NCBI GenBank assembly: GCA_964360335.1
Contig: CAYHVH010000003.1
Location: 1 to 58,217 of the forward strand
DNA length: 58,217 nt
Direction of reading: 5' to 3'
Origin: an uncultured Candidatus Saccharibacteria bacterium
GTDB lineage: Bacteria; Patescibacteriota; Doudnabacteria; UBA920; 2-01-FULL-46-14
Shown here: piece by piece, positions 807 to 50,746 of the stretch
Numbering within the stretch: the stretch's first letter is position 1
Layout: every line of letters begins with the position of its first letter
Program-made: the position numbers and the translations under genes
Notes under the pieces: model-generated
Databases searched by the model: none
Told to the model about the DNA's origin: nothing
The model's input: the letters and a program-made list of their open reading frames with translations, nothing else

Positions 807-2309
807 ATGAGTCTACAAGGCAAAAAAATATTTATTTTTCAGCAGCGCAACTGGGGCCGGACCATCGGTCATTTTTTGGCCAAGAAACTTACGGCTGAAG
901 GTTGCGTATTGGCGGCTTGGACTATGAAGCCCAGCACCCACAAATTTACCAAAAACCAGAAAGACGTAAAATACGAATTCTTAATCAATGATGACGAGGC
1001 GCTAAATGATCCAGTGCGATATTTAAGCCATGAGGATTATTCTCTTCAAGAAATTTGTGAAGCTTTGGGGGTCCCCGGTGTTTGGCCAATGGCCTCCACG
1101 ATTAGAAATTATGTCAAATCTTATCGCGAAAAATTCTACTACAGTTTTCGGCAAAACGTTCCGGATGAGCAGATCGTGGCCTATATCAAAGCAGTCTATA
1201 AGTACCTTAAACGGGTTTTTGAGGAGTTCCAGCCGGATTTGATTCTCGCCCCAAATTTCGTAGTTCTGCCGCATATTATGTTCAATCTTTACGGGCAAAA
1301 ACGCGGGATACCGATGCTCGCTGTTACCGACAGCAAAGTCCAGGGAATTAACATCTTTACTTACTCTTACCGAGACGACAAGGGGCCGTTTTTTGAGCGA
1401 GTGGATGCGCTCAATCAAAATCTGGACGAGACAATTAATCGCGAACGGGCCAAAAAATACATTGCGGAATTTCGGCAAAGTTTTAAGCATCCCGACCATA
1501 CCGAACTACCGGTTTCCCGCGGTTCTATTTGGCGAATAGTTCGCCACGAACTCTCGCCCTTCTATCAAATTTTGAAATGGTATTGGAAGCGGCCCGAAAA
1601 TGAACTTCCGGCCCTGGGTCCGACTTTGGATTTTCGTCCACCCGGAATAATTTTGCGTGACCATTTTGCCAGAAAACGGTATCAAAAATTTGCCGAAAAG
1701 TTTTCTTACCACCCGATTGAGAAGATTCAAAAGTACGTTTATTTCCCCTTGCAGTTTCAGCCGGAAGCCGCTATCGATGTCATCGCCCCTTTCTTCAACA
1801 ACCAAATCGAGACGGCGAGGCTGGTCGCAATGTCTTTGCCCGCCGATTACACCCTGGTGGTAAAAGAACATCCGTCAATGGTGGGATTGCGTCCGCCGTC
1901 TTATTTAGAAAAAATTGCTCGGAGCCCCAACGTCAAGCTGGTTGATTATCGGATTCCCAGTGAAGAAATTTTACGAAAGGCCCGGTTGGTAGTGAATTTA
2001 GGAAATACGATTCTGGCCGAAGCGGCTCTTTACAAAATTCCCGGAATTCAGCTCGGGGACTTGGGCGTGACCTTAAAACTCCCGAATGTCTGGAAGCACA
2101 CGGATATGACGAGTCTTTCAAAAAAGATCCAAGAAGTCCTAGAAGTTGATCTAAACACCGCTGATTATGAGCGCCGGTTGGAGAATTTCGTGGCCGCGGC
2201 ATTTGATGCGGGTTTTGATTTCAAGTATTTTGAGGTCTGGGCTAAAGGGGGAGATATGAATATTTTGTGGCAGATTTATAAAAAGGAAATAGAAAAGGTC
2301 CTTGTATGA
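807..2309 (+). CDS. capsule polysaccharide biosynthesis-like protein (KpsS/KpsC Capsule_synth-type, tentative)
   Basis: 500 aa. YVYFPLQFQPEAAIDV...LVVKEHPSM resembles the Capsule_synth signature as I remember it. The stop overlaps the start of the next gene (2306-2309). Confidence 0.5.
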   Translation: MSLQGKKIFIFQQRNWGRTIGHFLAKKLTAEGCVLAAWTMKPSTHKFTKNQKDVKYEFLINDDEALNDPVRYLSHEDYSLQEICEALGVPGVWPMASTIRNYVKSYREKFYYSFRQNVPDEQIVAYIKAVYKYLKRVFEEFQPDLILAPNFVVLPHIMFNLYGQKRGIPMLAVTDSKVQGINIFTYSYRDDKGPFFERVDALNQNLDETINRERAKKYIAEFRQSFKHPDHTELPVSRGSIWRIVRHELSPFYQILKWYWKRPENELPALGPTLDFRPPGIILRDHFARKRYQKFAEKFSYHPIEKIQKYVYFPLQFQPEAAIDVIAPFFNNQIETARLVAMSLPADYTLVVKEHPSMVGLRPPSYLEKIARSPNVKLVDYRIPSEEILRKARLVVNLGNTILAEAALYKIPGIQLGDLGVTLKLPNVWKHTDMTSLSKKIQEVLEVDLNTADYERRLENFVAAAFDAGFDFKYFEVWAKGGDMNILWQIYKKEIEKVLV

Positions 2310-5117: not shown

Positions 5118-5950
5118 CAAACAATACTGCCAAAAAATTGGATTTGTCAGGAAAGACCATCTTGCTTACAGGTGCTACCGGTTTTTTTGGGCGGCATTTT
5201 GCCCAAGGCTTTTTGGAAGCGGGGGCAAAAGTGGTCCTACTGGGTCGGTCCTTAAAGCTAGCGGCTCAAGTGCGGGAACTGCAAAGACAATACGGCAAAA
5301 GTCGCGCCGTTGGTTTTCGAGTAGATTTTTATGCCAGGGCAAAATTTGCCAAAGTTTTGAAACAGGTCGTGAGGCGCTTCAAAATCGACGTCCTCGTGAA
5401 TAACGCTTTTGATTTTAGTTCCAGGACCGGTTTCAATACGCCCAAAGGAAAACTAGAAAACGCGCTTTACGAACAATGGCAGGCGGCGTTTGAGTCCGGG
5501 ATTTACTGGGCGGTCCTTACTACGCAGGTTATCGGTAGCCAAATGAGAAAGCGCAAAACCGGAAGCATTATTAACATCAGTTCAATGTACGGCATAGTGG
5601 CGCCCAATCCGGATTTGTACAAAGGTACGACTAAATTCAACCCGCCCAGTTACAGCGTGGTCAAAGCCGGTCTTCTAGCCCTGACCCGCTATACGGCTAC
5701 ATTTTGGGCGGAGGATGGCGTACGCTGCAACAGTATTAGCCCGGGCGCATTTTCCAATTTAGAAAGTGTTACAGCCAATAGTGTGGCTCCTCAAGATCCT
5801 TTCTTGAGACGGCTTCGGGAGAAAATTCTTCTGGGGGTTACGGGTCATCCCAGGGATCTTCTTGGCGCGCTCTTATTTTTGGCTTCGGACGGCTCGAGTT
5901 ATATGACCGGTCAAAATATTGTCATTGACGGCGGGTGGACCATAATTTGA
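5114..5950 (+). CDS. SDR family oxidoreductase
   Basis: TGATGFFGRHFA (TGxxGxxG), NNAF and YSVVKAG (YxxxK). Confidence 0.85.
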   Translation: MTNNTAKKLDLSGKTILLTGATGFFGRHFAQGFLEAGAKVVLLGRSLKLAAQVRELQRQYGKSRAVGFRVDFYARAKFAKVLKQVVRRFKIDVLVNNAFDFSSRTGFNTPKGKLENALYEQWQAAFESGIYWAVLTTQVIGSQMRKRKTGSIINISSMYGIVAPNPDLYKGTTKFNPPSYSVVKAGLLALTRYTATFWAEDGVRCNSISPGAFSNLESVTANSVAPQDPFLRRLREKILLGVTGHPRDLLGALLFLASDGSSYMTGQNIVIDGGWTII

Positions 5951-21291: not shown

Positions 21292-21584
21292 TGAAATTTC
21301 TTGTCAGCAAGCCAAAATTGAAGGTCCGCTTGACATTTCTACTCTGGACAATTTTTGCGCTGCTGGTGCTGGGTCAGGTGCTGGCGCTTTATAAGTACTT
21401 GTACGCCGACTTCAAGGCCAGTGCTGTAAGTCCCGAGCCCCAGCCGACGGCGATTCTCCGCATTGATGAGGTAACTTCCCAGCAGGTCAAAGCGTGGTGG
21501 CAAGACCGGCAAAACTTTGAACTTCCGGCTTACAAGTTGCAGGCGGGGGATGTGGGCCGGGAAAATCCGTTCGCCGAGTATTAG
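21291..21584 (+). CDS. small membrane-anchored hypothetical protein, last gene of the pilus operon
   Basis: 97 aa with a GTG start and one TM segment (LTFLLWTIFALLVLGQVLAL). Followed by a terminator. Confidence 0.45.
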   Translation: MKFLVSKPKLKVRLTFLLWTIFALLVLGQVLALYKYLYADFKASAVSPEPQPTAILRIDEVTSQQVKAWWQDRQNFELPAYKLQAGDVGRENPFAEY

Positions 21585-21601
21585 AAATTTTCGCGCGTTG
21601 C

Positions 21602-21631
21602 AAAAAACCCGCTTTTAAAAGCGGGTTTTTT
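21602..21631. terminator. bidirectional rho-independent terminator
   Basis: aaaaaacccgc-ttttaaaa-gcgggtttttt. Confidence 0.8.
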
Positions 21632-21854
21632 GGTGGGTCGTGCAGGAATCGAACCTCTAATCCGCCTTAGGCGGACCCCTGCCCCGCCTGCCATTACCAC
21701 TGCCCCCAGTAGGTCTCGAACCTACAACCTTCTCCTTAAGAGGGAGCTGCTCTACCAATTGAGCTATGAGGGCAATGGCAGTGGCGGGCAGGTCTGCCAG
21801 CTCCGACGCTTCGGTCGGAGCCCCGACTGGGCGTCGGGGTTGAGCTAACGACCC
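21631..21854 (-). pseudogene. interrupted tRNA-Lys(UUU)-like gene: a 5' fragment and a 3' fragment with encoded CCA, separated by about 180 nt
   Basis: The minus strand starts GGGTCGTTAGCTCAA and ends GGTTCGATTCCTGCACGACCCACCA. These are complementary acceptor strands. No canonical D, anticodon or T stem can be drawn across the intervening hairpins and the nested tRNA. Confidence 0.5.
21701..21773 (-). tRNA. tRNA-Lys (anticodon CTT)
   Basis: Hand-folded cloverleaf: GCCCTCA/TGGGGGC acceptor, GCTC/GAGC D stem, loop CTCTTAA, GTAGG-TTCGAGA-CCTAC T arm. 73 nt, no encoded CCA. Confidence 0.85.
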
Positions 21855-21857
21855 GAA

Positions 21858-21929
21858 TGCCCTCGGAGGGAATCGAACCCCCACTCACAGGTCCGAAGCC
21901 TGTTGTGATATCCATTTCACCACGAGGGC
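21858..21929 (-). tRNA. tRNA-Arg (anticodon TCG)
   Basis: Hand-folded: GCCCTCG/CGAGGGC acceptor, GTGA/TCAC D stem, ACAGG-CTTCGGA-CCTGT anticodon arm, GGGGG-TTCGATT-CCCTC T arm. 72 nt. Confidence 0.85.
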
Positions 21930-21937
21930 GCTGTTTT

Positions 21938-21966
21938 ATTATAAAAGGTTCAATTAATCTTTTCAA
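21938..21966 (-). promoter_or_regulatory. sigma70-like promoter for the tRNA cluster (TTGAAA, 17 nt, TATAAT)
   Basis: On the minus strand the -35 is at 21966-21961 and the -10 at 21943-21938. The tRNA-Arg 5' end lies 9 nt downstream of the -10. Confidence 0.55.
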
Positions 21967-21973
21967 TGCTTAG

Positions 21974-21982
21974 TGGTATAAT
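21974..21982 (+). promoter_or_regulatory. extended -10 TGGTATAAT, 9 nt before the ATG of the HTH gene (implies a leaderless mRNA)
   Basis: tggtataat-atccctgcc-ATG. Confidence 0.5.
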
Positions 21983-21991
21983 ATCCCTGCC

Positions 21992-22201
21992 ATGGCTGAT
22001 GAGAAAGACAAAATTTACGGAGCCCGGGATCTAGCGCAGTTCTTCGGGGTTACCGAAAAGACCATCTGGGAATGGTGCAAGAAAGGCAAACTCCCGGCGT
22101 TTAAGATTGGCAAAGAATGGAAAGTCCGGGTGGTGGATCTCAACAAAACAATCAGCCAGAAGATTAATATTCATCGGGAAAAAGACGGTACCCTCTTTTA
22201 G
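21992..22201 (+). CDS. excisionase-type helix-turn-helix DNA-binding protein
   Basis: ARDLAQFFGVTEKTIWEWCKKGKLPAFKIGKEWKV. This is a paralogue-like match to the protein at 9113-9358. Confidence 0.7.
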   Translation: MADEKDKIYGARDLAQFFGVTEKTIWEWCKKGKLPAFKIGKEWKVRVVDLNKTISQKINIHREKDGTLF

Positions 22202-22203
22202 CT

Positions 22204-23190
22204 ATGATTTATCTGTTCTATGGGGACGATACCTTGACGCTCTTGCAGGAGCTCTGGACGCTCAAGGAAAAATTTATCCAAAAACATTCGCGCCAGGCAG
22301 TCGAGGAACTCGCAATCGACGCCCAGACGACGGATGGCGGGCTTCGGGCGGCCTTGCAGGGCCTTTTGGAAAACCCGAGTTTATTCGCCCTGAAAAAGTT
22401 AGTGGTACTGCGGGATTTTCTGAACGAGCTTCATGATTATCCGGCGGCCGAGGCCTACCTCCTTACCGCTCTCGGCAAGCTTGGCTCGGCGGTGACCGTG
22501 GTGTTCTCGCAGCTTCAGCCGGTTGACCGGCGGTTGCGGTTCTTTAAAAAACTCTGGGGTTTAGCCACGACCAAGGAATTTACGGTGCCCTCGGAAAAAG
22601 CTTTGGAGACCTGGATAAAAAACCGCCTAAAAAAGGACGGATACGAGATCGAAAAACCGGCTCTGCAGGAGCTCCTGGCGGCCTTGGGAGCGGAGTTTGA
22701 GATGTGGCAGGTGGAAGGGGAGTTGCAGAAACTGATGTTTTACCGGCAGAACGACAAAACCATTAAGCTTCCCGAAGTAAAGGAGCTCGTTTCCCGCAAT
22801 ATCTCGGCTTCGGTTTTTGACCTGACCAATTTGGTGGCCGAGGGCAAGATCCCGGCCGCCGTGGCGCTCCTCGAGCAGATGATTGCCACTGCTCCGGCGA
22901 CCGACTCCAAGGATCGGATCATTCAAATTGTTGGAGCGCTGGCTTCGCAAATTCGTTCCCTCCTCTTGGTCAAGGATTTGGAACGGGAGCACCAGAGTGC
23001 GGAAATTGCGAAGATCCTGGACTGGCAGGCCGGCCGGGTGTGGATTAACCTCAAGCTGGCCGCGAAATTCAACAAGGAAAAATTAATCCAACTCCTCCTG
23101 GATTTGAAAGCGATTGATTTTCGGCTCAAGACCTCGGAAGAGCCGCCCAAACTGCTTTTGACCTTGTTTTTCCAGAAGGCCGCCGCTTAA
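22204..23190 (+). CDS. holA: DNA polymerase III delta subunit
   Basis: 328 aa. MIYLFYGDDTLTLLQE N-terminus and a helical C-terminal domain typical of HolA. Confidence 0.65.
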   Translation: MIYLFYGDDTLTLLQELWTLKEKFIQKHSRQAVEELAIDAQTTDGGLRAALQGLLENPSLFALKKLVVLRDFLNELHDYPAAEAYLLTALGKLGSAVTVVFSQLQPVDRRLRFFKKLWGLATTKEFTVPSEKALETWIKNRLKKDGYEIEKPALQELLAALGAEFEMWQVEGELQKLMFYRQNDKTIKLPEVKELVSRNISASVFDLTNLVAEGKIPAAVALLEQMIATAPATDSKDRIIQIVGALASQIRSLLLVKDLEREHQSAEIAKILDWQAGRVWINLKLAAKFNKEKLIQLLLDLKAIDFRLKTSEEPPKLLLTLFFQKAAA

Positions 23191-23203: not shown

Positions 23204-23605
23204 ATGTATGAATTCCTGGAACATACCGGGGAATTGGCGGTCCGGGTAAAAGGCAAGGATTTGCCTTCTCTTTTTATCAGTGCCGCTGCGGCCATGAATG
23301 ACTATCTGCTTCAGGATTTGACGCCTGGTGCCGAACAGGGCACGGAAACAATTGAAGTCTCGGCCGCTGATTACAGAAGTTTATTGGTGGCCTGGCTGTC
23401 AGAGATTCTTTATCGGATTGAGGTTAATGACTGTATTTATCAGAAGTTTGAGGTTAAGGTTCTGGAGAAAACCGCGTTGATTGCGGAAATTACGGGGGCC
23501 AGGGTTAGAAAGCTCGCCCGGGATATCAAGGCCGCAACCCATCATGGGTTGGAGATTAAGCGGATACCGGACGGTTACGAAGTGGTAATTATTTTCGATA
23601 TTTGA
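23204..23605 (+). CDS. archease (RtcB activator)
   Basis: 133 aa. FLEHTGELAVRVKG, LLVAWLSEILY and IKAATHHGLEI match archease family blocks. Directly upstream of rtcB. Confidence 0.8.
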   Translation: MYEFLEHTGELAVRVKGKDLPSLFISAAAAMNDYLLQDLTPGAEQGTETIEVSAADYRSLLVAWLSEILYRIEVNDCIYQKFEVKVLEKTALIAEITGARVRKLARDIKAATHHGLEIKRIPDGYEVVIIFDI

Positions 23606-23666
23606 GATTGCTTCGTGTTCGCTCGCAATGATGTCATTGCGACGAGGCGAAGCCGAGGAAGCAATC
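23604..23666. repeat. family B palindromic element (two inverted units) filling the archease-rtcB spacer
   Basis: gagattgcttcgtgttcgctcgcaatgat / gtcattgcgacgaggcgaagccgaggaagcaatc. Confidence 0.85.
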
Positions 23667-23667
23667 T

Positions 23668-25065
23668 ATGGATTTTCAGAAGCTCAAAAAAATTTCTGAT
23701 TATGTCTATGAGATCCCGCGCTCCTATCGAGCGGATATGCGGGTTCCGGCGAGACTTCTTATTTCCGAGAAACTCTTGGCCGAGACCCGGGACGATAAAA
23801 GTCTGGAACAGCTCGTGAATGTCACGACGATTCCGGGAATTTATAAATATGCTTTGGCAATGCCCGATATCCACCAAGGCTACGGTTTTCCAGTCGGGGG
23901 AGTAGCGGCGACCGAGATGCCGCAGGGCTTGGTCTCGCCAGGTGGCATCGGCTACGACATCAATTGCGGCGTCCGGCTTTTGAAAAGCGGCCTGACCCTG
24001 GAGGACGTGAAGCCCCATTTGCGCTCCTTGGCCCAGCAACTCCAGCGCGAGGTCCCCAGCGGGGTGGGAGAGGGAGGAAGATGGAAACTTAAGCCCGCGG
24101 AAGTGGACCAAGTTCTGGAAGGGGGGGCGCCGTGGCTCGTGGAAAAAAAGGGCTTGGGCCGGGTGGAGGATTTGGAGAAGCAGGAAAGCCGGGGCTGTTT
24201 GCCTGGGGCCTCGGCCAAAACCGTGAGCGTAAGGGCCAAAAGACGCGGCAGCGACCAACTCGGGACCTTGGGGGCGGGCAATCACTTTCTGGAAATTCAG
24301 CAGGTGCAGAAAATTTACGCGGCCGAGCCGGCTGGGCAATTTGGACTCAAGGAAAATCAAATCGTGGTCATGATTCATTGCGGCAGCCGGGGCTTGGGCC
24401 ACCAAAACGCCACCGACTATATTGCTCTGATGACCCAGATTATGCCCCGCTACGGGATTAGTTTGCCGGACCGGCAGCTGGCGGGCGTGCCTTACGAAAC
24501 ACCCGAGGGAAAAAATTATTTTGCCTCGATGTGCGCCGCGGCCAATTTTGCCTGGGCCAACCGCCAAGCCATCACGGCCGAGGTCAGGGAAGGTTTTAAA
24601 AAAGTTCTACCGCCAACTTTGGACTCGTCCTTGGAGGTGGTTTATGACGTCGCCCATAACATTGCGAAACTTGAGGAATACGACGGCCGAAAACTTTTGG
24701 TGCACCGCAAAGGCGCAACCCGGGCTTTCCCCGGACAACCGGTCCTTATCCCCGGCAGCATGGGCACCGCTTCTTTTGTTTTGGTCGGCCGCCCCGGTTC
24801 AATGGAAGTTTCTTTTGGCAGCGCCTGCCACGGAGCGGGCAGGCGCATGTCCAGGACCCGCGCCCGGGAGCAGGTTCGGGGAGATCAACTCAAAAGGGAA
24901 TTGGAAGGAAGAGGCATCGCCGTGGCCGCCGGTTCGCTTTCCGGGTTGGCCGAGGAAGCCCCCGAGGCTTACAAAGACGTGGACGAAGTAGTCCGCGTGG
25001 TCCAGGAAGCCGGGATCGCCGAAATCGTGGCGCGGTTGGTGCCGCTTGCCGTGGTGAAAGGGTAG
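23668..25065 (+). CDS. rtcB: RNA 3'-phosphate/5'-OH ligase RtcB
   Basis: GYDINCGVRLL, GAGNHFLEIQ, HCGSRGLGHQ, HRKGAT and CHGAGR. Confidence 0.92.
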   Translation: MDFQKLKKISDYVYEIPRSYRADMRVPARLLISEKLLAETRDDKSLEQLVNVTTIPGIYKYALAMPDIHQGYGFPVGGVAATEMPQGLVSPGGIGYDINCGVRLLKSGLTLEDVKPHLRSLAQQLQREVPSGVGEGGRWKLKPAEVDQVLEGGAPWLVEKKGLGRVEDLEKQESRGCLPGASAKTVSVRAKRRGSDQLGTLGAGNHFLEIQQVQKIYAAEPAGQFGLKENQIVVMIHCGSRGLGHQNATDYIALMTQIMPRYGISLPDRQLAGVPYETPEGKNYFASMCAAANFAWANRQAITAEVREGFKKVLPPTLDSSLEVVYDVAHNIAKLEEYDGRKLLVHRKGATRAFPGQPVLIPGSMGTASFVLVGRPGSMEVSFGSACHGAGRRMSRTRAREQVRGDQLKRELEGRGIAVAAGSLSGLAEEAPEAYKDVDEVVRVVQEAGIAEIVARLVPLAVVKG

Positions 25066-31693: not shown

Positions 31694-32305
31694 TCAAAAT
31701 CCCAGTTTTTCTTTCACGAGAATGAGCTTGAGCCGGCCAGATTCTATCTCTTTGTTGACGATCAGTACTTTACTGACATTGCTGCCCATGCCGTAGGCTT
31801 TCCTGGCCCTCGCGTCTTCAAGAGGCAACACGTATTCATAAATGCGTTTGAAGCCGTCCTCCCGGTCTTTCACGATTTTTTGCGCTCCCACCACCCAGAT
31901 CACATGCCCTGCCCCATAGGCGTAAGCTGGCAGTTGCGACCCCGTGTTCGAGGCGATTAGCAGCTGGCCTTCTTGGGTTACGGCATGCACACTGCCCAAA
32001 GCAAATGCCGGCGCTGCGCCATATTTTTTCTTATCTTGGGCAGGTATTTGTTTGTCCAGAAGTTTCTCCCGCACCGGCTTATAACCACCTGATTCATTTA
32101 CCTCTTTTGCAATTCCAGTTGTCTCAAGGGTTTGAGAAGACATAGTCATCACTTCCACCCCCGGTGGCAGAAGTTCGAGCGCCTTTTGTCTGGCTTCCGC
32201 AGCATTTTCGACTACAAAAACCTCGATGCCGCTTCGGCGCAAAGCTTCAGCGGTCTTATTAATAATCTCTTGAGATGGGATTTGATCGTATTTCATCATG
32301 TTCAT
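31694..32305 (-). CDS. LUD-domain (LutC/YkgG-like) protein
   Basis: 203 aa. The overall pattern and length fit the LUD family as I remember it. No catalytic motif can be checked by eye. Confidence 0.45.
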   Translation of the reverse strand: MNMMKYDQIPSQEIINKTAEALRRSGIEVFVVENAAEARQKALELLPPGVEVMTMSSQTLETTGIAKEVNESGGYKPVREKLLDKQIPAQDKKKYGAAPAFALGSVHAVTQEGQLLIASNTGSQLPAYAYGAGHVIWVVGAQKIVKDREDGFKRIYEYVLPLEDARARKAYGMGSNVSKVLIVNKEIESGRLKLILVKEKLGF

Positions 32306-32619
32306 TTGACAATTTTTATGGCCTTGCCGTGAATTAAAGCTTCGGTTACTTTTTTGTAAGCTCCGGACAGCACGCGCTGAAAAGTGCTCTGGGAAACGCC
32401 CATGGCCTTGGCCGCTTGGGTTTGGTCCAAGCCTTTGAGGTTTTTGAGCCTCAAGGCCTCGGCTTCTTCTTCGCTCAACTCAACACAATCAAGCGGGCCG
32501 CAAGCCTTTCCTTCTGGCCGAAAATCCCGGAACCTTGGGCAATACCCGATTCGGTAATGACAGCGCGGGCGAGTCATAAAAAATTGAAAGTTAATGGTAA
32601 AATTGTTAAGTAAACTCAT
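32302..32619 (-). CDS. DUF134 (UPF0251) putative DNA-binding protein
   Basis: RPRCHYRIGYCPRFRDFRPEG, then LSEEEAEALRLKNLKGLDQTQAAKAMGVSQSTFQRVL (sigma-70 region 4-like HTH). Confidence 0.7.
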   Translation of the reverse strand: MSLLNNFTINFQFFMTRPRCHYRIGYCPRFRDFRPEGKACGPLDCVELSEEEAEALRLKNLKGLDQTQAAKAMGVSQSTFQRVLSGAYKKVTEALIHGKAIKIVK

Positions 32620-32763
32620 GGGAAAGCTCCCCGGCCCTCCTCCCCGCCTGCCGCGAATTATCTTTATTAGCAGGCTGACACAAGACGCATGCGAGGAGCT
32701 AAATTAGTAAATTTTACGGCGGGCAGGCAAAATTTGAGGAGGACCGGATCATCGGGCTTTCCC

Positions 32764-35018: not shown

Positions 35019-35291
35019 CTACGAGATCGAAACCCGCAATTCAGCATCAAGTGCGTCAGCGACCCTTTGTAGAAATTTAATCGAGGGATTATAGCTACCT
35101 TGCTCAAGACGAGAGATAACCGGCTGTTTTGTCCCAATTTTGTTTGCCAATGCTTTTTGTGTCAAGCCTTGGCTCATACGTTTCTTAATAATCATTCTAA
35201 CCAAAGCAAATTCCGGGTCCAGTTCATCATAGGCCCTTTTGATTTTTTTATCCTTCAAGAGGCGATTTTTGAAACTCTTGTAAGTCTTCAT
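35019..35291 (-). CDS. higA: XRE-family HTH antitoxin (HigA-like)
   Basis: GLTQKALANKIGTKQPVISRLEQG. Located downstream of the toxin gene. Confidence 0.75.
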   Translation of the reverse strand: MKTYKSFKNRLLKDKKIKRAYDELDPEFALVRMIIKKRMSQGLTQKALANKIGTKQPVISRLEQGSYNPSIKFLQRVADALDAELRVSIS

Positions 35292-35317
35292 AATCTTATG
35301 ATAACTTATATGTTATA

Positions 35318-35623
35318 TTATGTCAAGGCTTTAAGCTTCTTCCTCGCTTTTTCCAGTTCACCTCTCGGGGTTTTCTGAGACTTTTTAACGAATCCGTGAA
35401 TAAGGTAAATAGTATGTTCATGGAAGCAATAAAAGATGCGAATTTCCTGCTGTCCGCGAACTCTAAGTTCAAATAATTTGTTTGTAATCTTTTTGCTGTG
35501 TGGCATGCCGAGACGGTAACCAAACTCTTCCAGTAAGTCAATCGTGCGTAAAACTTTAGCAACTGTCTGTTTTTCGAGAGATGAGATAAACTTTTCGACT
35601 CCTGGGTCTATGTATATCCGCAT
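35318..35623 (-). CDS. higB: RelE/ParE-superfamily toxin, Gp49/HigB-like
   Basis: LFELRVRGQQEIRIFYCFHEHTIYLIHGFVKKSQKTP is the Gp49-like pattern. Toxin-first gene order. Confidence 0.75.
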   Translation of the reverse strand: MRIYIDPGVEKFISSLEKQTVAKVLRTIDLLEEFGYRLGMPHSKKITNKLFELRVRGQQEIRIFYCFHEHTIYLIHGFVKKSQKTPRGELEKARKKLKALT

Positions 35624-35687: not shown

Positions 35688-35809
35688 AGAATGGCGTATT
35701 TAGGTAATTGACCGTTGAGGGGTCCTCGGATGATCAGATGTCTACAATTTGACCTGCCTGCCCTGACTGCCGTCAGGCCAGGGGGCGGGTAGGCGCACCT
35801 CGGTCGGGG

Positions 35810-38520: not shown

Positions 38521-38736
38521 CTGTGGCAGGGGGGAGGCCACTCTTGACTTGCCCCGTAGTGTCCCGACAAAGTCGGGACTACTACCGGGGTCCATTGAAC
38601 TACGGGGACCCAAACTTTGCTCTGGCTCACGCCAGAGCTTCGATGGGCGAGAATACTAGAGCAACCAATCTACTCGTCCACCAAAGCTCGAGTGGTATGA
38701 GAGCGTCGGTGGAAACTACGGGGACGCCTTTTTAGT
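38521..38736 (-). ncRNA. unclassified structured RNA or leader co-transcribed with tRNA-Arg and tRNA-His
   Basis: Promoter TTGCCA (38771-38766), 17 nt, TAAAAT (38748-38743). Hairpins at 38703-38727, 38619-38638 (8-bp stem, GTGA loop), 38588-38611 and 38552-38590. Two loops carry CCCGTAGTT, which is complementary to ACTACGGGG. Confidence 0.45.
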
Positions 38737-49789: not shown

Positions 49790-50746
49790 TTATTTATATC
49801 TAAATCTCCCGTGGTATTTTTTGTGAATCTCTTTCAAGCGGCGGTTAGTGATGTGGGTGTAAATCTGGGTCGTGGTGATGGAAGCGTGGCCCAAGATTTC
49901 CTGCACCGAACGAAGATCGGCCCCGGCGGTCAAAAGGTCGGTCGCCATGGTGTGCCGGAGGGTGTGGGGGGTGATGTGGGGAGAAACGCCGGCCCGGAGC
50001 GCGTATTTTTTCATGAGCCGCTGGATGGAGCGGGGGGTGAGGGGGTTCTGGTCCTCGATGCCGAGTTCCCGGTTGTGCCGGACGAACAGGGCGGGGGAGT
50101 TGTCGGGGCGAGCTCCCAGATATTTGCGCAAAGCGTCCCGGGCCCGCTCCGAGAGAAACACGATCCGCAATTTATCACCCTTGCCTTTGACGGGAAATTC
50201 CTCTTTTTTGAGACTGACTTGCGCGCGCTTGAGCGAAGCCAGTTCCGCGACCCGCAGCCCGGTGGAAAATAAAAGTTCGAGGATGGCGCGGTCGCGCAAG
50301 CGCAAAAGTTCATCCGGTTCCTGAAGCGGGGCTTTTAGGAGTTTTTCCAAATCATCGCTTTCCAGAAACATCACTTGGCGGGCCGGGATTTTCGGCAGTT
50401 CCAGCTTTTCCGCCGCCAAGCTTTTGATGTCCCGCTTGGCCAAGTATTTGAGAAAGGAGCGCAGGGCGATGATGTGGTAGTTTTGGGTTACGAGCTTAAG
50501 CTCGTGGTTTCTTCTATCTTTAAGACGGTTGAGCCATAGCCGAAAGTTACGCACCAGGTCCAAATCAATGCCCTCGGGCCTTTTTACGCCTTTTTTGGCG
50601 CCAAATTCCAAAAACCGCTTGAGATACGAATCATAGTTGCGCAAGGTGAGTTTGGAGCGGTTCTTCTCGATCTCGAGATGCTCGAGAAATTCAGTTTTGA
50701 GTTTGTCGAGAGTATTTACCATGTTTGTTTCCATCATTTCCGTCAT
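49790..50746 (-). CDS. tyrosine recombinase, XerC/XerD family
   Basis: N-terminal SAM-like domain, ARP..., HTLRHTMATDLL and LGHASITTTQIYTH. The ATG at 50746 lies inside a family B repeat. Confidence 0.8.
   Translation of the reverse strand: MTEMMETNMVNTLDKLKTEFLEHLEIEKNRSKLTLRNYDSYLKRFLEFGAKKGVKRPEGIDLDLVRNFRLWLNRLKDRRNHELKLVTQNYHIIALRSFLKYLAKRDIKSLAAEKLELPKIPARQVMFLESDDLEKLLKAPLQEPDELLRLRDRAILELLFSTGLRVAELASLKRAQVSLKKEEFPVKGKGDKLRIVFLSERARDALRKYLGARPDNSPALFVRHNRELGIEDQNPLTPRSIQRLMKKYALRAGVSPHITPHTLRHTMATDLLTAGADLRSVQEILGHASITTTQIYTHITNRRLKEIHKKYHGRFRYK

Follow-up and report, generated by a model that had tools for sequence, protein, structure and literature searches.

A tRNA-Lys(CUU) gene nested in the remains of another, and a recurrent family of hairpin-ended inserts in tRNA genes of Candidate Phyla Radiation bacteria

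Archaeal tRNA genes can carry non-canonical bulge-helix-bulge (BHB) introns or be split or tri-split, as in Thermoproteales, Nanoarchaeum and Caldivirga; a BHB consists of two 3-nucleotide (nt) bulges separated by 4 base pairs (bp) at the exon–intron boundaries, and in archaea and metazoans tRNA splicing uses RtcB with Archease as its ligase pair. Bacterial group I introns sit in tRNA anticodon loops, for example that of cyanobacterial tRNA-Leu(UAA), and have a catalytic core of P3–P9 and a usual length of over 200 nt. Short bacterial palindromic repeats such as REP/BIME, Correia/NEMIS and the Rickettsia palindromic elements may lie within genes, and the leader–trailer stems of rRNA operons are processed by RNase III in bacteria and by a BHB with RtcB circularization in archaea. 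Here we describe a locus in a 58,217-nt stretch of DNA (contig CAYHVH010000003.1, hereafter the window) in which a 110-nt cassette, containing a complete tRNA-Lys(CUU), lies between the two halves of another tRNA-Lys gene. The nested locus is real and is a member of a widespread, apparently undescribed family. The nearest literature deals with the transposition of introns in archaea and with rRNA introns of the Candidate Phyla Radiation (CPR) (PMC10714607), and the tRNA fragments left by integrating elements have been reviewed for prokaryotes (PMC9897764); in the full-text literature we found no description of tRNA-in-tRNA genes or tRNA introns in CPR bacteria.

The cassette family shares with archaeal BHB introns and split tRNAs its non-canonical sites, including the D arm and the anticodon loop and sometimes several per gene, the presence of related inserts in different tRNAs, as if transposed, and a long helix that unites two tRNA parts; the archaeal intron ligase, RtcB with Archease, is moreover encoded beside the window locus. 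Unlike archaeal introns, the inserts have a helix flush with the exons instead of a BHB, a bacterial (CPR) host and no EndA in sight, they contain a whole tRNA of the same anticodon, many of their outer genes are decayed and the element also occurs in non-tRNA hairpins. As with group I introns, an intervening sequence stands in a bacterial tRNA gene and its precise removal can restore the tRNA, but this one has no ribozyme core, is too short, uses mainly a site in the D stem and carries a tRNA. REP/BIME, Correia/NEMIS and Rickettsia elements resemble it in being noncoding, tens to about 100 nt long and present in many copies with pairing ends, in sitting as a hairpin within the tip of another hairpin and in having no transposase next to them; they differ in that the cassette carries a functional tRNA cargo, lands at defined tRNA positions (23/24 and 35/36), brings the anticodon of its target and has ends conserved across distant CPR lineages. 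Integrative elements with a tRNA gene as their target likewise interrupt an essential tRNA, resupply its function and leave relic pieces by an intact gene, although they measure kilobases rather than 110 nt, bring an integrase and supply the 3′ part of the tRNA, whereas the cassette supplies a whole tRNA and both old halves stay as its flanks. Finally, flanking sequences that form a long helix around a stable RNA in a precursor recall rRNA processing stems, except that this helix encloses a single tRNA and is itself embedded in another tRNA gene. By analogy, the cassette would work most like a target-rebuilding tRNA integrative element and a palindromic non-autonomous repeat, while its anatomy resembles archaeal introns and split tRNAs.

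The nested locus and its outer gene

The cassette (21792-21683; coordinates are those of the whole window, and the tRNA unit is read on the minus strand) has the form 5′-CCUGCCCGCC…GGCAGGCGGG-3′, is noncoding and is inserted between nt 23 and 24 of the D stem of the outer gene. Its ends form a helix of about 18 bp capped by the complete tRNA-Lys(CUU); the conserved part of this helix is paired at 9 of 10 positions (with one U·G and one C·A) and the variable part at 7 of 8, and the inner acceptor stem follows. The initial annotation of this DNA had recognized the well-folding inner tRNA at 21773-21701 and the inverted repeat around it (CTGCCCGCCACTGCCATT at 21791-21774 and AATGGCAGGCGGGGCAG, located here at 21695-21679), and ARAGORN, Rfam and reading of the sequence recover every element that it listed on the minus strand (Table 1), the inner tRNA over its full length. 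The annotation was likewise right that the outer acceptor strands are perfectly complementary (GGGUCGU/ACGACCC, 7/7) and that the outer T stem is down to 3 bp. Its placement of the break in the D-loop holds for two small hairpins, whereas the large insert lies in the D stem. The inner tRNA-Lys(CUU), presumed to be the working gene, shows a few base differences from its counterparts in the related loci L009 and L005 (comparison contigs and loci are cited by number), and the partial inner copy of L136 agrees with it up to the end of the L136 contig.

The boundaries of the cassette are uniquely defined as A23|C1 and G-1|G24, with a first helix pair, C1-G-1, that is flush and without bulges. No BHB is present at the junction, and none of the alternative pairing registers checked by hand fits one. 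The window, L005, L009 and the tRNA-linked metagenome loci have one and the same 5′ junction, ...GGCAGA|CCTGCCCGCC, and the 3′ junction reads GGCAGGCGGG|GCA... in class I tRNAs (Thr, Lys) and |CGCG... in Leu; about 16 independent metagenome loci share the exact junctions with L009 and the window. Neither a target-site duplication at the cassette nor an open reading frame (ORF) within it was found. On the tRNA-sense strand, the variable helix has 16 G·U against 2 A·C pairs, and positions 3 and 7 of the terminal helix are wobble-type pairs whichever way the arms are oriented. Covariation in the variable 8-bp helix is moderate (mean score 10.5 for same-locus and 6.3 for cross-locus pairs) because the helix is semi-conserved. 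Predicted folding energies are -60.7 kcal/mol (z -5.6) for the cassette by itself and -120.2 kcal/mol for the whole 224 nt, compared with -87.8 +/- 4.9 in shuffles (z -6.7), and the outer acceptor stem closes the 224-nt structure; full precursors of the family are predicted to fold as double cloverleaves.

The whole locus is 100% identical in contig L001 (ERZ1292643), assembled from a different sample, which disfavours the assembly error that the initial annotation had allowed for. Within the window, the outer 5′ piece GGGTCGTTAGCTCAA occurs once only and GGTTCGATTCCTGCACGACCCACCA (21655-21631) is unique even at 3 mismatches, with a chance expectation of 0.

Comparison with relatives identifies the outer gene as the tRNA-Lys(CUU) resident in this lineage. 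The relatives have tRNA-Arg(TCG) and tRNA-Lys(CUU) at the same site upstream of HTH_17-holA, and in L006 and L135 the tRNA-Lys(CUU) at the equivalent position is uninterrupted (GGGTCGG...CTCTTAA...CCGACCCACCA, or in fuller form GGGTCGGTAGCTCAGT.GGTAGAGCAGGGG.CTCTTAA...GGTTCGATCCCCACCCGACCCACCA). The outer 5′ piece (21840-21854) is orthologous to nt 1-15 of these uninterrupted genes and also to the outer 5′ pieces of L009, L136 and L138. After removal of the two D-loop hairpins, exon 1 agrees with L006/L135 at 19 of 23 positions; the stretch GCAGGGG is identical in both (7/7), and the outer tail agrees with that of L006 at 21 of 25. In L009, exon 1 and the insert are the same as in the window, and a remnant of the anticodon arm, GUCC-CUCUUAA-GGAC, persists. 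These uninterrupted orthologues, together with the L009 remnant, identify the outer gene as derived from tRNA-Lys(CUU) and not, as the initial annotation had it, from a UUU-like gene. The E. coli tRNA-Lys(UUU) sequence on which that assignment rested is correct, being matched at 100% in all 5426 E. coli genomes, and the outer 5′ 14 nt are indeed identical to it, with the 3′ 25 nt agreeing at 24 of 25; the likeness arises because acceptor and T arms are conserved among lysine tRNAs. L009 thus offers a filled site orthologous to the empty ones of L006 and L135 (GGTAGA-GCAGGGG), L009 and L006 being distant relatives.

Two further observations concern the resident gene. Directly upstream of the tRNA-Lys position, L009 and L006 share a conserved spacer of about 110 nt (GGGGCCCCC..TTTTTTGGGGAGAGCGGGA..AGATTGCAGA..GCGAAAATCG..CACGCGA; 5470-5673 (+) in L006 and 5130-5270 (+) in L009), which may be a structured RNA or a processing signal. 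The acceptor stems of positionally orthologous tRNA-Lys(CUU) genes are unusually diverse in L003, L006, L007, L131, L132, L135 and L138 (GGGTCGG, GCGCCCA, GCCCTGT, GGGCCGC, GCGCTCA, GGGGTCC and the inner type, GCCYYCA), consistent with frequent tRNA-gene replacement.

In the window, the outer gene carries four inserts, namely the cassette and three small GC hairpins, and even with these removed it retains neither the loop nor the 3′ strand of its anticodon arm, no variable region and little of the T stem. At default settings, ARAGORN reports no outer tRNA after removal of the cassette and any combination of hairpins; at 80% stringency it makes only a sub-threshold 'Arg(CCT)' call in the insert-stripped gene, and deleting hairpin 3 in three registers recovered no outer anticodon arm. 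The outer gene cannot yield a 76-nt tRNA-Lys of any anticodon, and by its tRNA homology, the failure of the detector and the loss of the anticodon arm it is classed as a tRNA pseudogene or relic. Similar hairpins stand in other outer exons: small hairpin 1 is missing from L009, where GCTCAACTGGCAGA is continuous, and its stem recurs inside exon 1 of L108 (CYCCGAC/GUCGGRG there), UCCCGAC occurs in L125 and the outer Lys remnant of L138 has UCCGCC-NNN-GGCGG hairpins after CUCUU that are similar to hairpin 3. In L114, two hairpins stand in for the middle of the outer gene.

The TTGAAA/TATAAT site upstream of tRNA-Arg is probably the start of the transcription unit of tRNA-Arg and the nested tRNA-Lys, and the perfect palindrome after the outer CCA is read as its intrinsic terminator; a simple terminator scan missed this palindrome, possibly for want of a loop.

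Table 1 Coordinates of the nested tRNA unit and of related sequences in the window
Feature	Position	Strand	Description
Promoter-like site, TTGAAA-17 nt-TATAAT	21938..21966	-	11/12 consensus matches; 0.2 sites expected in shuffles; 5′ of tRNA-Arg
tRNA-Arg(TCG), ordinary	21858..21929	-	ARAGORN; Rfam 65.7 bits; 3-nt spacer before outer 5′ piece
Outer tRNA-Lys exon 1, part a, GGGTCGTTAGCTCAA	21840..21854	-	Acceptor GGGUCGU, U8 A9, D-stem GCUC, AA of D-loop
Small hairpin 1, CCCCGAC-GCCCA-GUCGGGG	21821..21839	-	Inserted in old D-loop
Small hairpin 2, CUCCGAC-CGAAGC-GUCGGAG	21801..21820	-	Inserted in old D-loop; its stem recurs within exon 1 of L108
Outer exon 1, part b, CUGGCAGA	21793..21800	-	Region after hairpin 2: CTGGCAGA; D-loop remainder and D-stem nt 22-23; stops at cassette insertion point
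Cassette 5′ arm, 19 nt	21774..21792	-	Conserved CCUGCCCGCC and semi-variable ACUGCCAUU
Inner tRNA-Lys(CUU), complete, without encoded CCA	21701..21773	-	ARAGORN; Rfam 67.2 bits, E 3e-14, model 1-71/71
Cassette 3′ arm, 18 nt	21683..21700	-	GUGGUAAU and conserved GGCAGGCGGG
Outer exon 2 head, GCAGGGG	21676..21682	-	D-stem nt 24-25, A26, 5′ strand of old anticodon stem
Small hairpin 3, UCCGCC-UAA-GGCGGA	21661..21675	-	Replaces anticodon loop, anticodon-stem 3′ strand and variable region
Outer exon 2 tail, TTAGAGGTTCGATTCCTGCACGACCCACCA	21631..21660	-	UUAGA, 3-bp T-stem remnant, T-loop UUCGAUU, ACGACCC, discriminator A, CCA
Perfect palindrome, AAAAAACCCGCUUUU/AAAAGCGGGUUUUUU	21600..21630	-	Aligned as terminator stem by several Rfam leader/small-RNA models
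Second hairpin-ended element, exact CCTGCCCGCC...GGCAGGCGGG, 85 nt	32643..32727	-	AT-rich 65-nt interior, no tRNA
Relic tRNA 5′ piece, GGGTCCCCGTAGTTCAATGGA, and 39-nt hairpin (CCCCGGUAGUAGUCCCGAC-UUU-GUCGGGACACUACGGGG)	38552..38611	-	

Rfam searches (E<=10 over 21300-22300, gathering score over the whole window) returned four tRNAs and no other RNA family. A group I intron was rejected, with no Intron_gpI match in these searches and with 73 of the 110 nt being tRNA. Also rejected were a tmRNA, of which ARAGORN and Rfam report none and whose G3·U70 is replaced by what reads as a G-C pair at outer positions 3-70, and a Y RNA (YrlA) of the kind found at rsr-rtcB loci, for which there is no Rfam match and no Ro/TROVE protein among the Pfam-scanned neighbours, the inner module being a full tRNA joined via its acceptor stem.

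Recurrence across Candidate Phyla Radiation genomes

A metagenome scan with a 17-mer across the 5′ junction gave at least 120 matching stretches, most of which are chance matches in GC-rich coding DNA. Among the matches listed, 21 loci (20 distinct) have the 5′ part of a tRNA before the junction motif, mostly with a complete tRNA about 9 nt after it. The 3′ motif, which was not in the query, is present in 16 of the 21 tRNA-linked matches listed as against 15 of 146 others, where it is mostly inexact and its distance varies. Three Doudnabacteria relatives also have this insert at this junction, and L003, L004, L008, L009 and L181 contain further copies of the element. With about 20 further cases, the arrangement is no isolated one, contrary to what the initial annotation supposed. 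The LepA protein of L080, the one metagenome locus checked in this way, groups with Patescibacteria / Portnoybacteria-like organisms, and the cassette family spans distant CPR lineages with genomes of 38-52% GC. In viral contigs, a junction 16-mer gave 57 matches, all of them chance coding matches save one mini-hairpin (L181).

The interrupted genes encode Leu, Thr, Lys and Arg tRNAs, and the tRNA in the insert nearly always has the same anticodon: inner and outer agree by ARAGORN for Leu-UAG (three times), Leu-CAG and Thr-CGU, and by reading for Leu-UAG (L089), Thr-UGU, Arg-UCU (twice), Arg-UCG (twice) and Lys-CUU. When the insert is deleted in silico, ARAGORN detects an outer tRNA of that anticodon in L057, L060, L061, L070 and L080, and one can be restored by eye in L089, L125 and L008; the exon join in L070-type loci would run from ...GGCAGA to CGCGCACGG.... 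About half of the outer genes are decayed (the window, L009, L005, L114, L026, L063, L081 and others). For each interrupted gene seen, a same-anticodon tRNA lies intact inside it or directly next to it, including for L024, L041 and L138, which are among the loci with tRNA-less inserts; the others are L125 (first insert) and L089 (second insert).

Rarer insertion sites are 35/36 in the anticodon loop (L125, L089, L008), 33/34 (L132, L138) and 21/22 (L003). The arms are flipped in L008 and L132 (CCCGCCUGCC...GGCGGGCAGG) with the inner tRNA still in sense orientation, as it is in every case seen. Nesting reaches three levels in L008, L030 and L136, and serial nesting or relic pieces are found in these and in L025. 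Copies also occupy the tips of non-tRNA intergenic hairpins in the window (32643-32727), L004, L008 and L181.

Sequence conservation within nested loci is uneven. The orthologous tRNA-Leu loci L080 and L114 are identical over exon 1 and the 5′ arm (42/42) and over the outer 3′ acceptor tail (16/16), whereas the inner tRNA differs at 8 of 82 positions and the flanks by about 15%. In L081, the outer piece is identical to the inner tRNA at 23 of 23 positions, and the outer pieces of L025 are likewise nearly identical to the inner tRNA, from which it follows that local duplication or gene conversion takes part. About 400 nt past its junction on the minus strand, L025 also has tandem repeats of 'tRNA-Leu nt 24-end + AATGAAGACGGCGGTCAGGCRGG', with two full copies and a third that is armless, and two copies have the same hairpin in the T-loop; unequal recombination therefore also acts at nested loci.

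Origin and processing of the nested genes

The reading that we favour, at about even chances, is that of a mobile or duplicative cassette that disrupts a tRNA gene and replaces it, with the outer gene now a relic leader and trailer. The cassette would be a DNA-level palindromic element, mobile or duplicative, which inactivates a resident tRNA gene while supplying its replacement and hence cannot be lost, and the outer gene would afterwards decay through deletions and hairpin insertions. In the window, the unit would be transcribed from the promoter upstream of tRNA-Arg and would end at the palindromic terminator past the old CCA; the inner tRNA would be freed by RNase P and a 3′ endonuclease, possibly requiring a prior cut in the long leader–trailer helix, with CCA added post-transcriptionally, and the outer pieces would act as base-paired leader and trailer only, yielding no decoding tRNA. 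Selection would account for the anticodon match, because an insert that disables a single-copy tRNA gene survives only when it brings the same tRNA. As far as sequence comparison can tell, this cassette model is favoured by the exact junctions, the filled and empty sites, the anticodon match, the intact tRNAs of the same anticodon, the decay of outer genes (that of the window not being a tRNA even when stripped of its inserts), the relics and the non-tRNA copies, and further by our having found no BHB, ribozyme core, known RNA family or nearby nuclease. Of the alternatives put forward in the initial annotation, a tRNA gene invaded by hairpins and by a tRNA-carrying mini-element is the best fit to the comparative data, with the same insert and junction in many genomes and small hairpins of the same stems in other interrupted tRNA genes; the decayed pseudogene that it also considered describes the outer gene of the window, as a consequence of the invasion.

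Several observations weigh against the cassette model. No transposase, integrase or nuclease recurs beside the elements or lies near the window locus. The inner and outer anticodons are perhaps mismatched in the decayed locus L129, and exons are perfect despite two to four inserts in L125 and L089, as splicing plus selection predict. The greater conservation of the end pieces than of the inner tRNA in L080/L114 suggests some function of the outer ends, the excess of G·U over A·C on the sense strand points to an RNA-level or at least strand-specific structure, and L081 and L025 imply local duplication or gene conversion beyond foreign invasion alone.

The main rival reading, which we consider possible though improbable, is that the insert is a new kind of protein-spliced bacterial tRNA intron. 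An endonuclease would cut the base of the helix on both strands, RtcB/Archease would join the exons and the inner tRNA would mature from the excised intron, one transcript giving two tRNAs; loss of decoding by the outer product would then be a recent event in the window. Besides the perfect stems of genes with two to four inserts, the sense-strand G·U excess and the conserved outer ends of L080/L114, splicing is supported by the restoration of same-anticodon tRNAs upon in silico removal (five loci by ARAGORN and three by eye), by the predicted double-cloverleaf precursors, by the two wobble-type pairs of the terminal helix, which do not depend on how the arms are oriented, by the constant sense orientation of the inner tRNA and by Archease and RtcB genes 1.3-3.4 kb away, likewise encoded in L136, L132 and L004. 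However, the helix is flush with the exons and has no BHB, no EndA-like protein was found among the roughly 50 proteins scanned in the 58 kb, and Archease-RtcB is absent at the nested loci L005, L009 and L138 and present by the un-nested Lys gene of L132. Splicing also needs no match between cargo and host anticodons, yet they match throughout; every interrupted tRNA seen had a backup copy, decay has affected half of the outer genes, and the small GC hairpins in exons resemble ordinary terminator-type hairpins and would make a poor specific splicing signal. The cleavage and ligation proposed in the initial annotation can give no decoding outer tRNA in the window because the outer anticodon arm is missing, and a BHB intron was rejected there for want of bulges and of a restored tRNA; for the family, splicing may still apply, since removal does restore a tRNA at the five other loci. 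The generalization that CPR bacteria have a new class of tRNA introns, made of flush, hairpin-ended CCUGCCCGCC...GGCAGGCGGG inserts at D-stem 23/24 or in the anticodon loop and sealed by RtcB-Archease, is doubtful, and equally so is its corollary that a helix-base-specific endonuclease excises them, with many inserts holding a second tRNA in nested 'Russian-doll' precursors.

An unlikely alternative, drawn by analogy with the processing stems of rRNA operons, is that the outer pieces are kept as a closed, tRNA-like RNA scaffold that would direct or protect processing of the inner tRNA through an RNase P cut at the outer G1 after tRNA-Arg, an RNase III-type cut in the helix and end protection. 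The outer acceptor stem pairs fully and closes the minimum-free-energy fold, with T-loop and CCA intact though the middle of the gene is gone, and L114 independently keeps its ends, with hairpins replacing the middle and 0 changes in 58 nt against 8 in 82 for the inner tRNA; exon 1 is kept in the window, L009, L138, L136 and L005 though holA is only 45-56% identical, and long leader–trailer helices without visible outer exons flank the tRNA-Arg of L006 and the tRNA-Thr of L041. Yet L009, L005 and L138 have no outer 3′ acceptor strand, so closure is dispensable; exon 1 may owe its conservation to recent independent insertions or to gene conversion with the neighbouring inner tRNA, of which L081 is an example; and it is established that leader–trailer pairing that reaches the acceptor stem is generally unfavourable for RNase P. 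A duplicated attachment site, left over from a phage or island integrating at tRNA-Lys, is very improbable: integration does leave tRNA fragments beside intact tRNA genes (PMC9897764), and an HTH_17 gene (of excisionase-like fold) lies 60 nt upstream of the unit, but the 5′ and 3′ pieces flank merely 110 nt, no integrase is encoded within 25 kb (the sole Xer-like gene, at 49790-50746, is 28 kb off), HTH_17-holA belongs to the conserved chromosomal gene order whether a nest is present or not and the junction motif recurs across unrelated tRNA genes. Least credible of all is an assembly chimera or chance resemblance, for which the oddity of the arrangement speaks and nothing more, and against which stand the identical contig from another sample, the same architecture in L009, L136, L138 and about 20 contigs of unrelated projects, and the z-score of the fold. 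The sequence itself does not separate the three leading readings: the relic cassette at even chances, splicing well below it and the scaffold lower still.

Whichever mechanism applies, the locus shows a recurrent, apparently undescribed mode of tRNA gene turnover in the CPR. Were it to act at the DNA level, the cassette would be a minimal, protein-free, disrupt-and-replace selfish element of about 110 nt, and would explain the divergent acceptor stems of orthologous tRNAs among related CPR genomes. Were it spliced, it would represent the first protein-spliced tRNA introns in Bacteria, provide a housekeeping or physiological substrate for bacterial RtcB-Archease and have implications for how split and intron-containing tRNAs arose in archaea. 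In either case, tRNA annotation of CPR genomes will miss or mis-call nested genes, for which the junction motif is a simple census handle.

Genomic neighbourhood and further copies

The window comes from the chromosome of an uncultured bacterium of Hainich aquifer groundwater, a relative of Candidatus Doudnabacteria in the CPR/Patescibacteria, and carries pilus, holA, ClpB and G6PD genes. A phage origin was rejected, a distant search of 50,697 phage records having matched only the inner tRNA, at 80-84%. Beside the tRNA unit lies a divergent operon of HTH_17, holA, Archease, RtcB and ZIP, in which Archease (103 bits) and RtcB (542 bits) occupy 23204-25065 (+). HTH_17-holA synteny is kept in all relatives, nested or not. 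Between holA and ZIP, Archease-RtcB comes and goes as an indel cassette: the window, L004, L132/133 and L136 have it, and L003, L005-L010, L134, L135 and L138 do not; in L135 and L138, ZIP directly follows holA. A functional link between the nested locus and Archease-RtcB was rejected, since their linkage is not conserved with the nested arrangement among relatives. Pfam scans of about 50 window proteins detected no EndA or transposase, and an all-vs-all BLASTP of 585 ORFs from 21 element-bearing loci gave no recurrent mobility protein, only housekeeping clusters in at most 4 loci each.

The cassette has the marks of a palindromic non-autonomous repeat, being short and noncoding with terminal inverted repeats, two exact-ended copies in the window and more in relatives. 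A larger intergenic hairpin (UCCUCCUC ... GAGGAGG), located immediately 5′ of a DUF134/HTH gene (32302-32619), bears the second window copy at its tip; the interior of this copy matches that of the L138 insert, likewise non-tRNA, only weakly. The relic tRNA piece at 38552-38611 lies about 35 nt upstream of an intact tRNA-Arg(TCT) (38517-38446), and the orthologous Arg(TCT) loci in L003 (10696-10808) and L008 (6940-7200) are nested tRNA-Arg(UCU) genes. A degenerate hairpin element, CCTACCCGCC...GGCAGGCAGG (35753-35793), is found directly upstream of a gene pair on the minus strand (35019-35623) that encodes a Gp49-like (HigB-type) toxin and an HTH_3 antitoxin-like protein. Finally, a conserved sequence of about 120 nt without an Rfam match, CGTTGGAAAAGTYAATGCCTCGCCCCGCC..GGCGGGGCTCGGCGRCCAAATCGTA..GGGGCAAAAAGAAAT.CCCGATTCCGTTA.AAGCAGAAAAG, follows the CCA of Arg, Leu and Lys tRNAs in three genomes (L135 at ~1290-1468 (-), L093 and L005).

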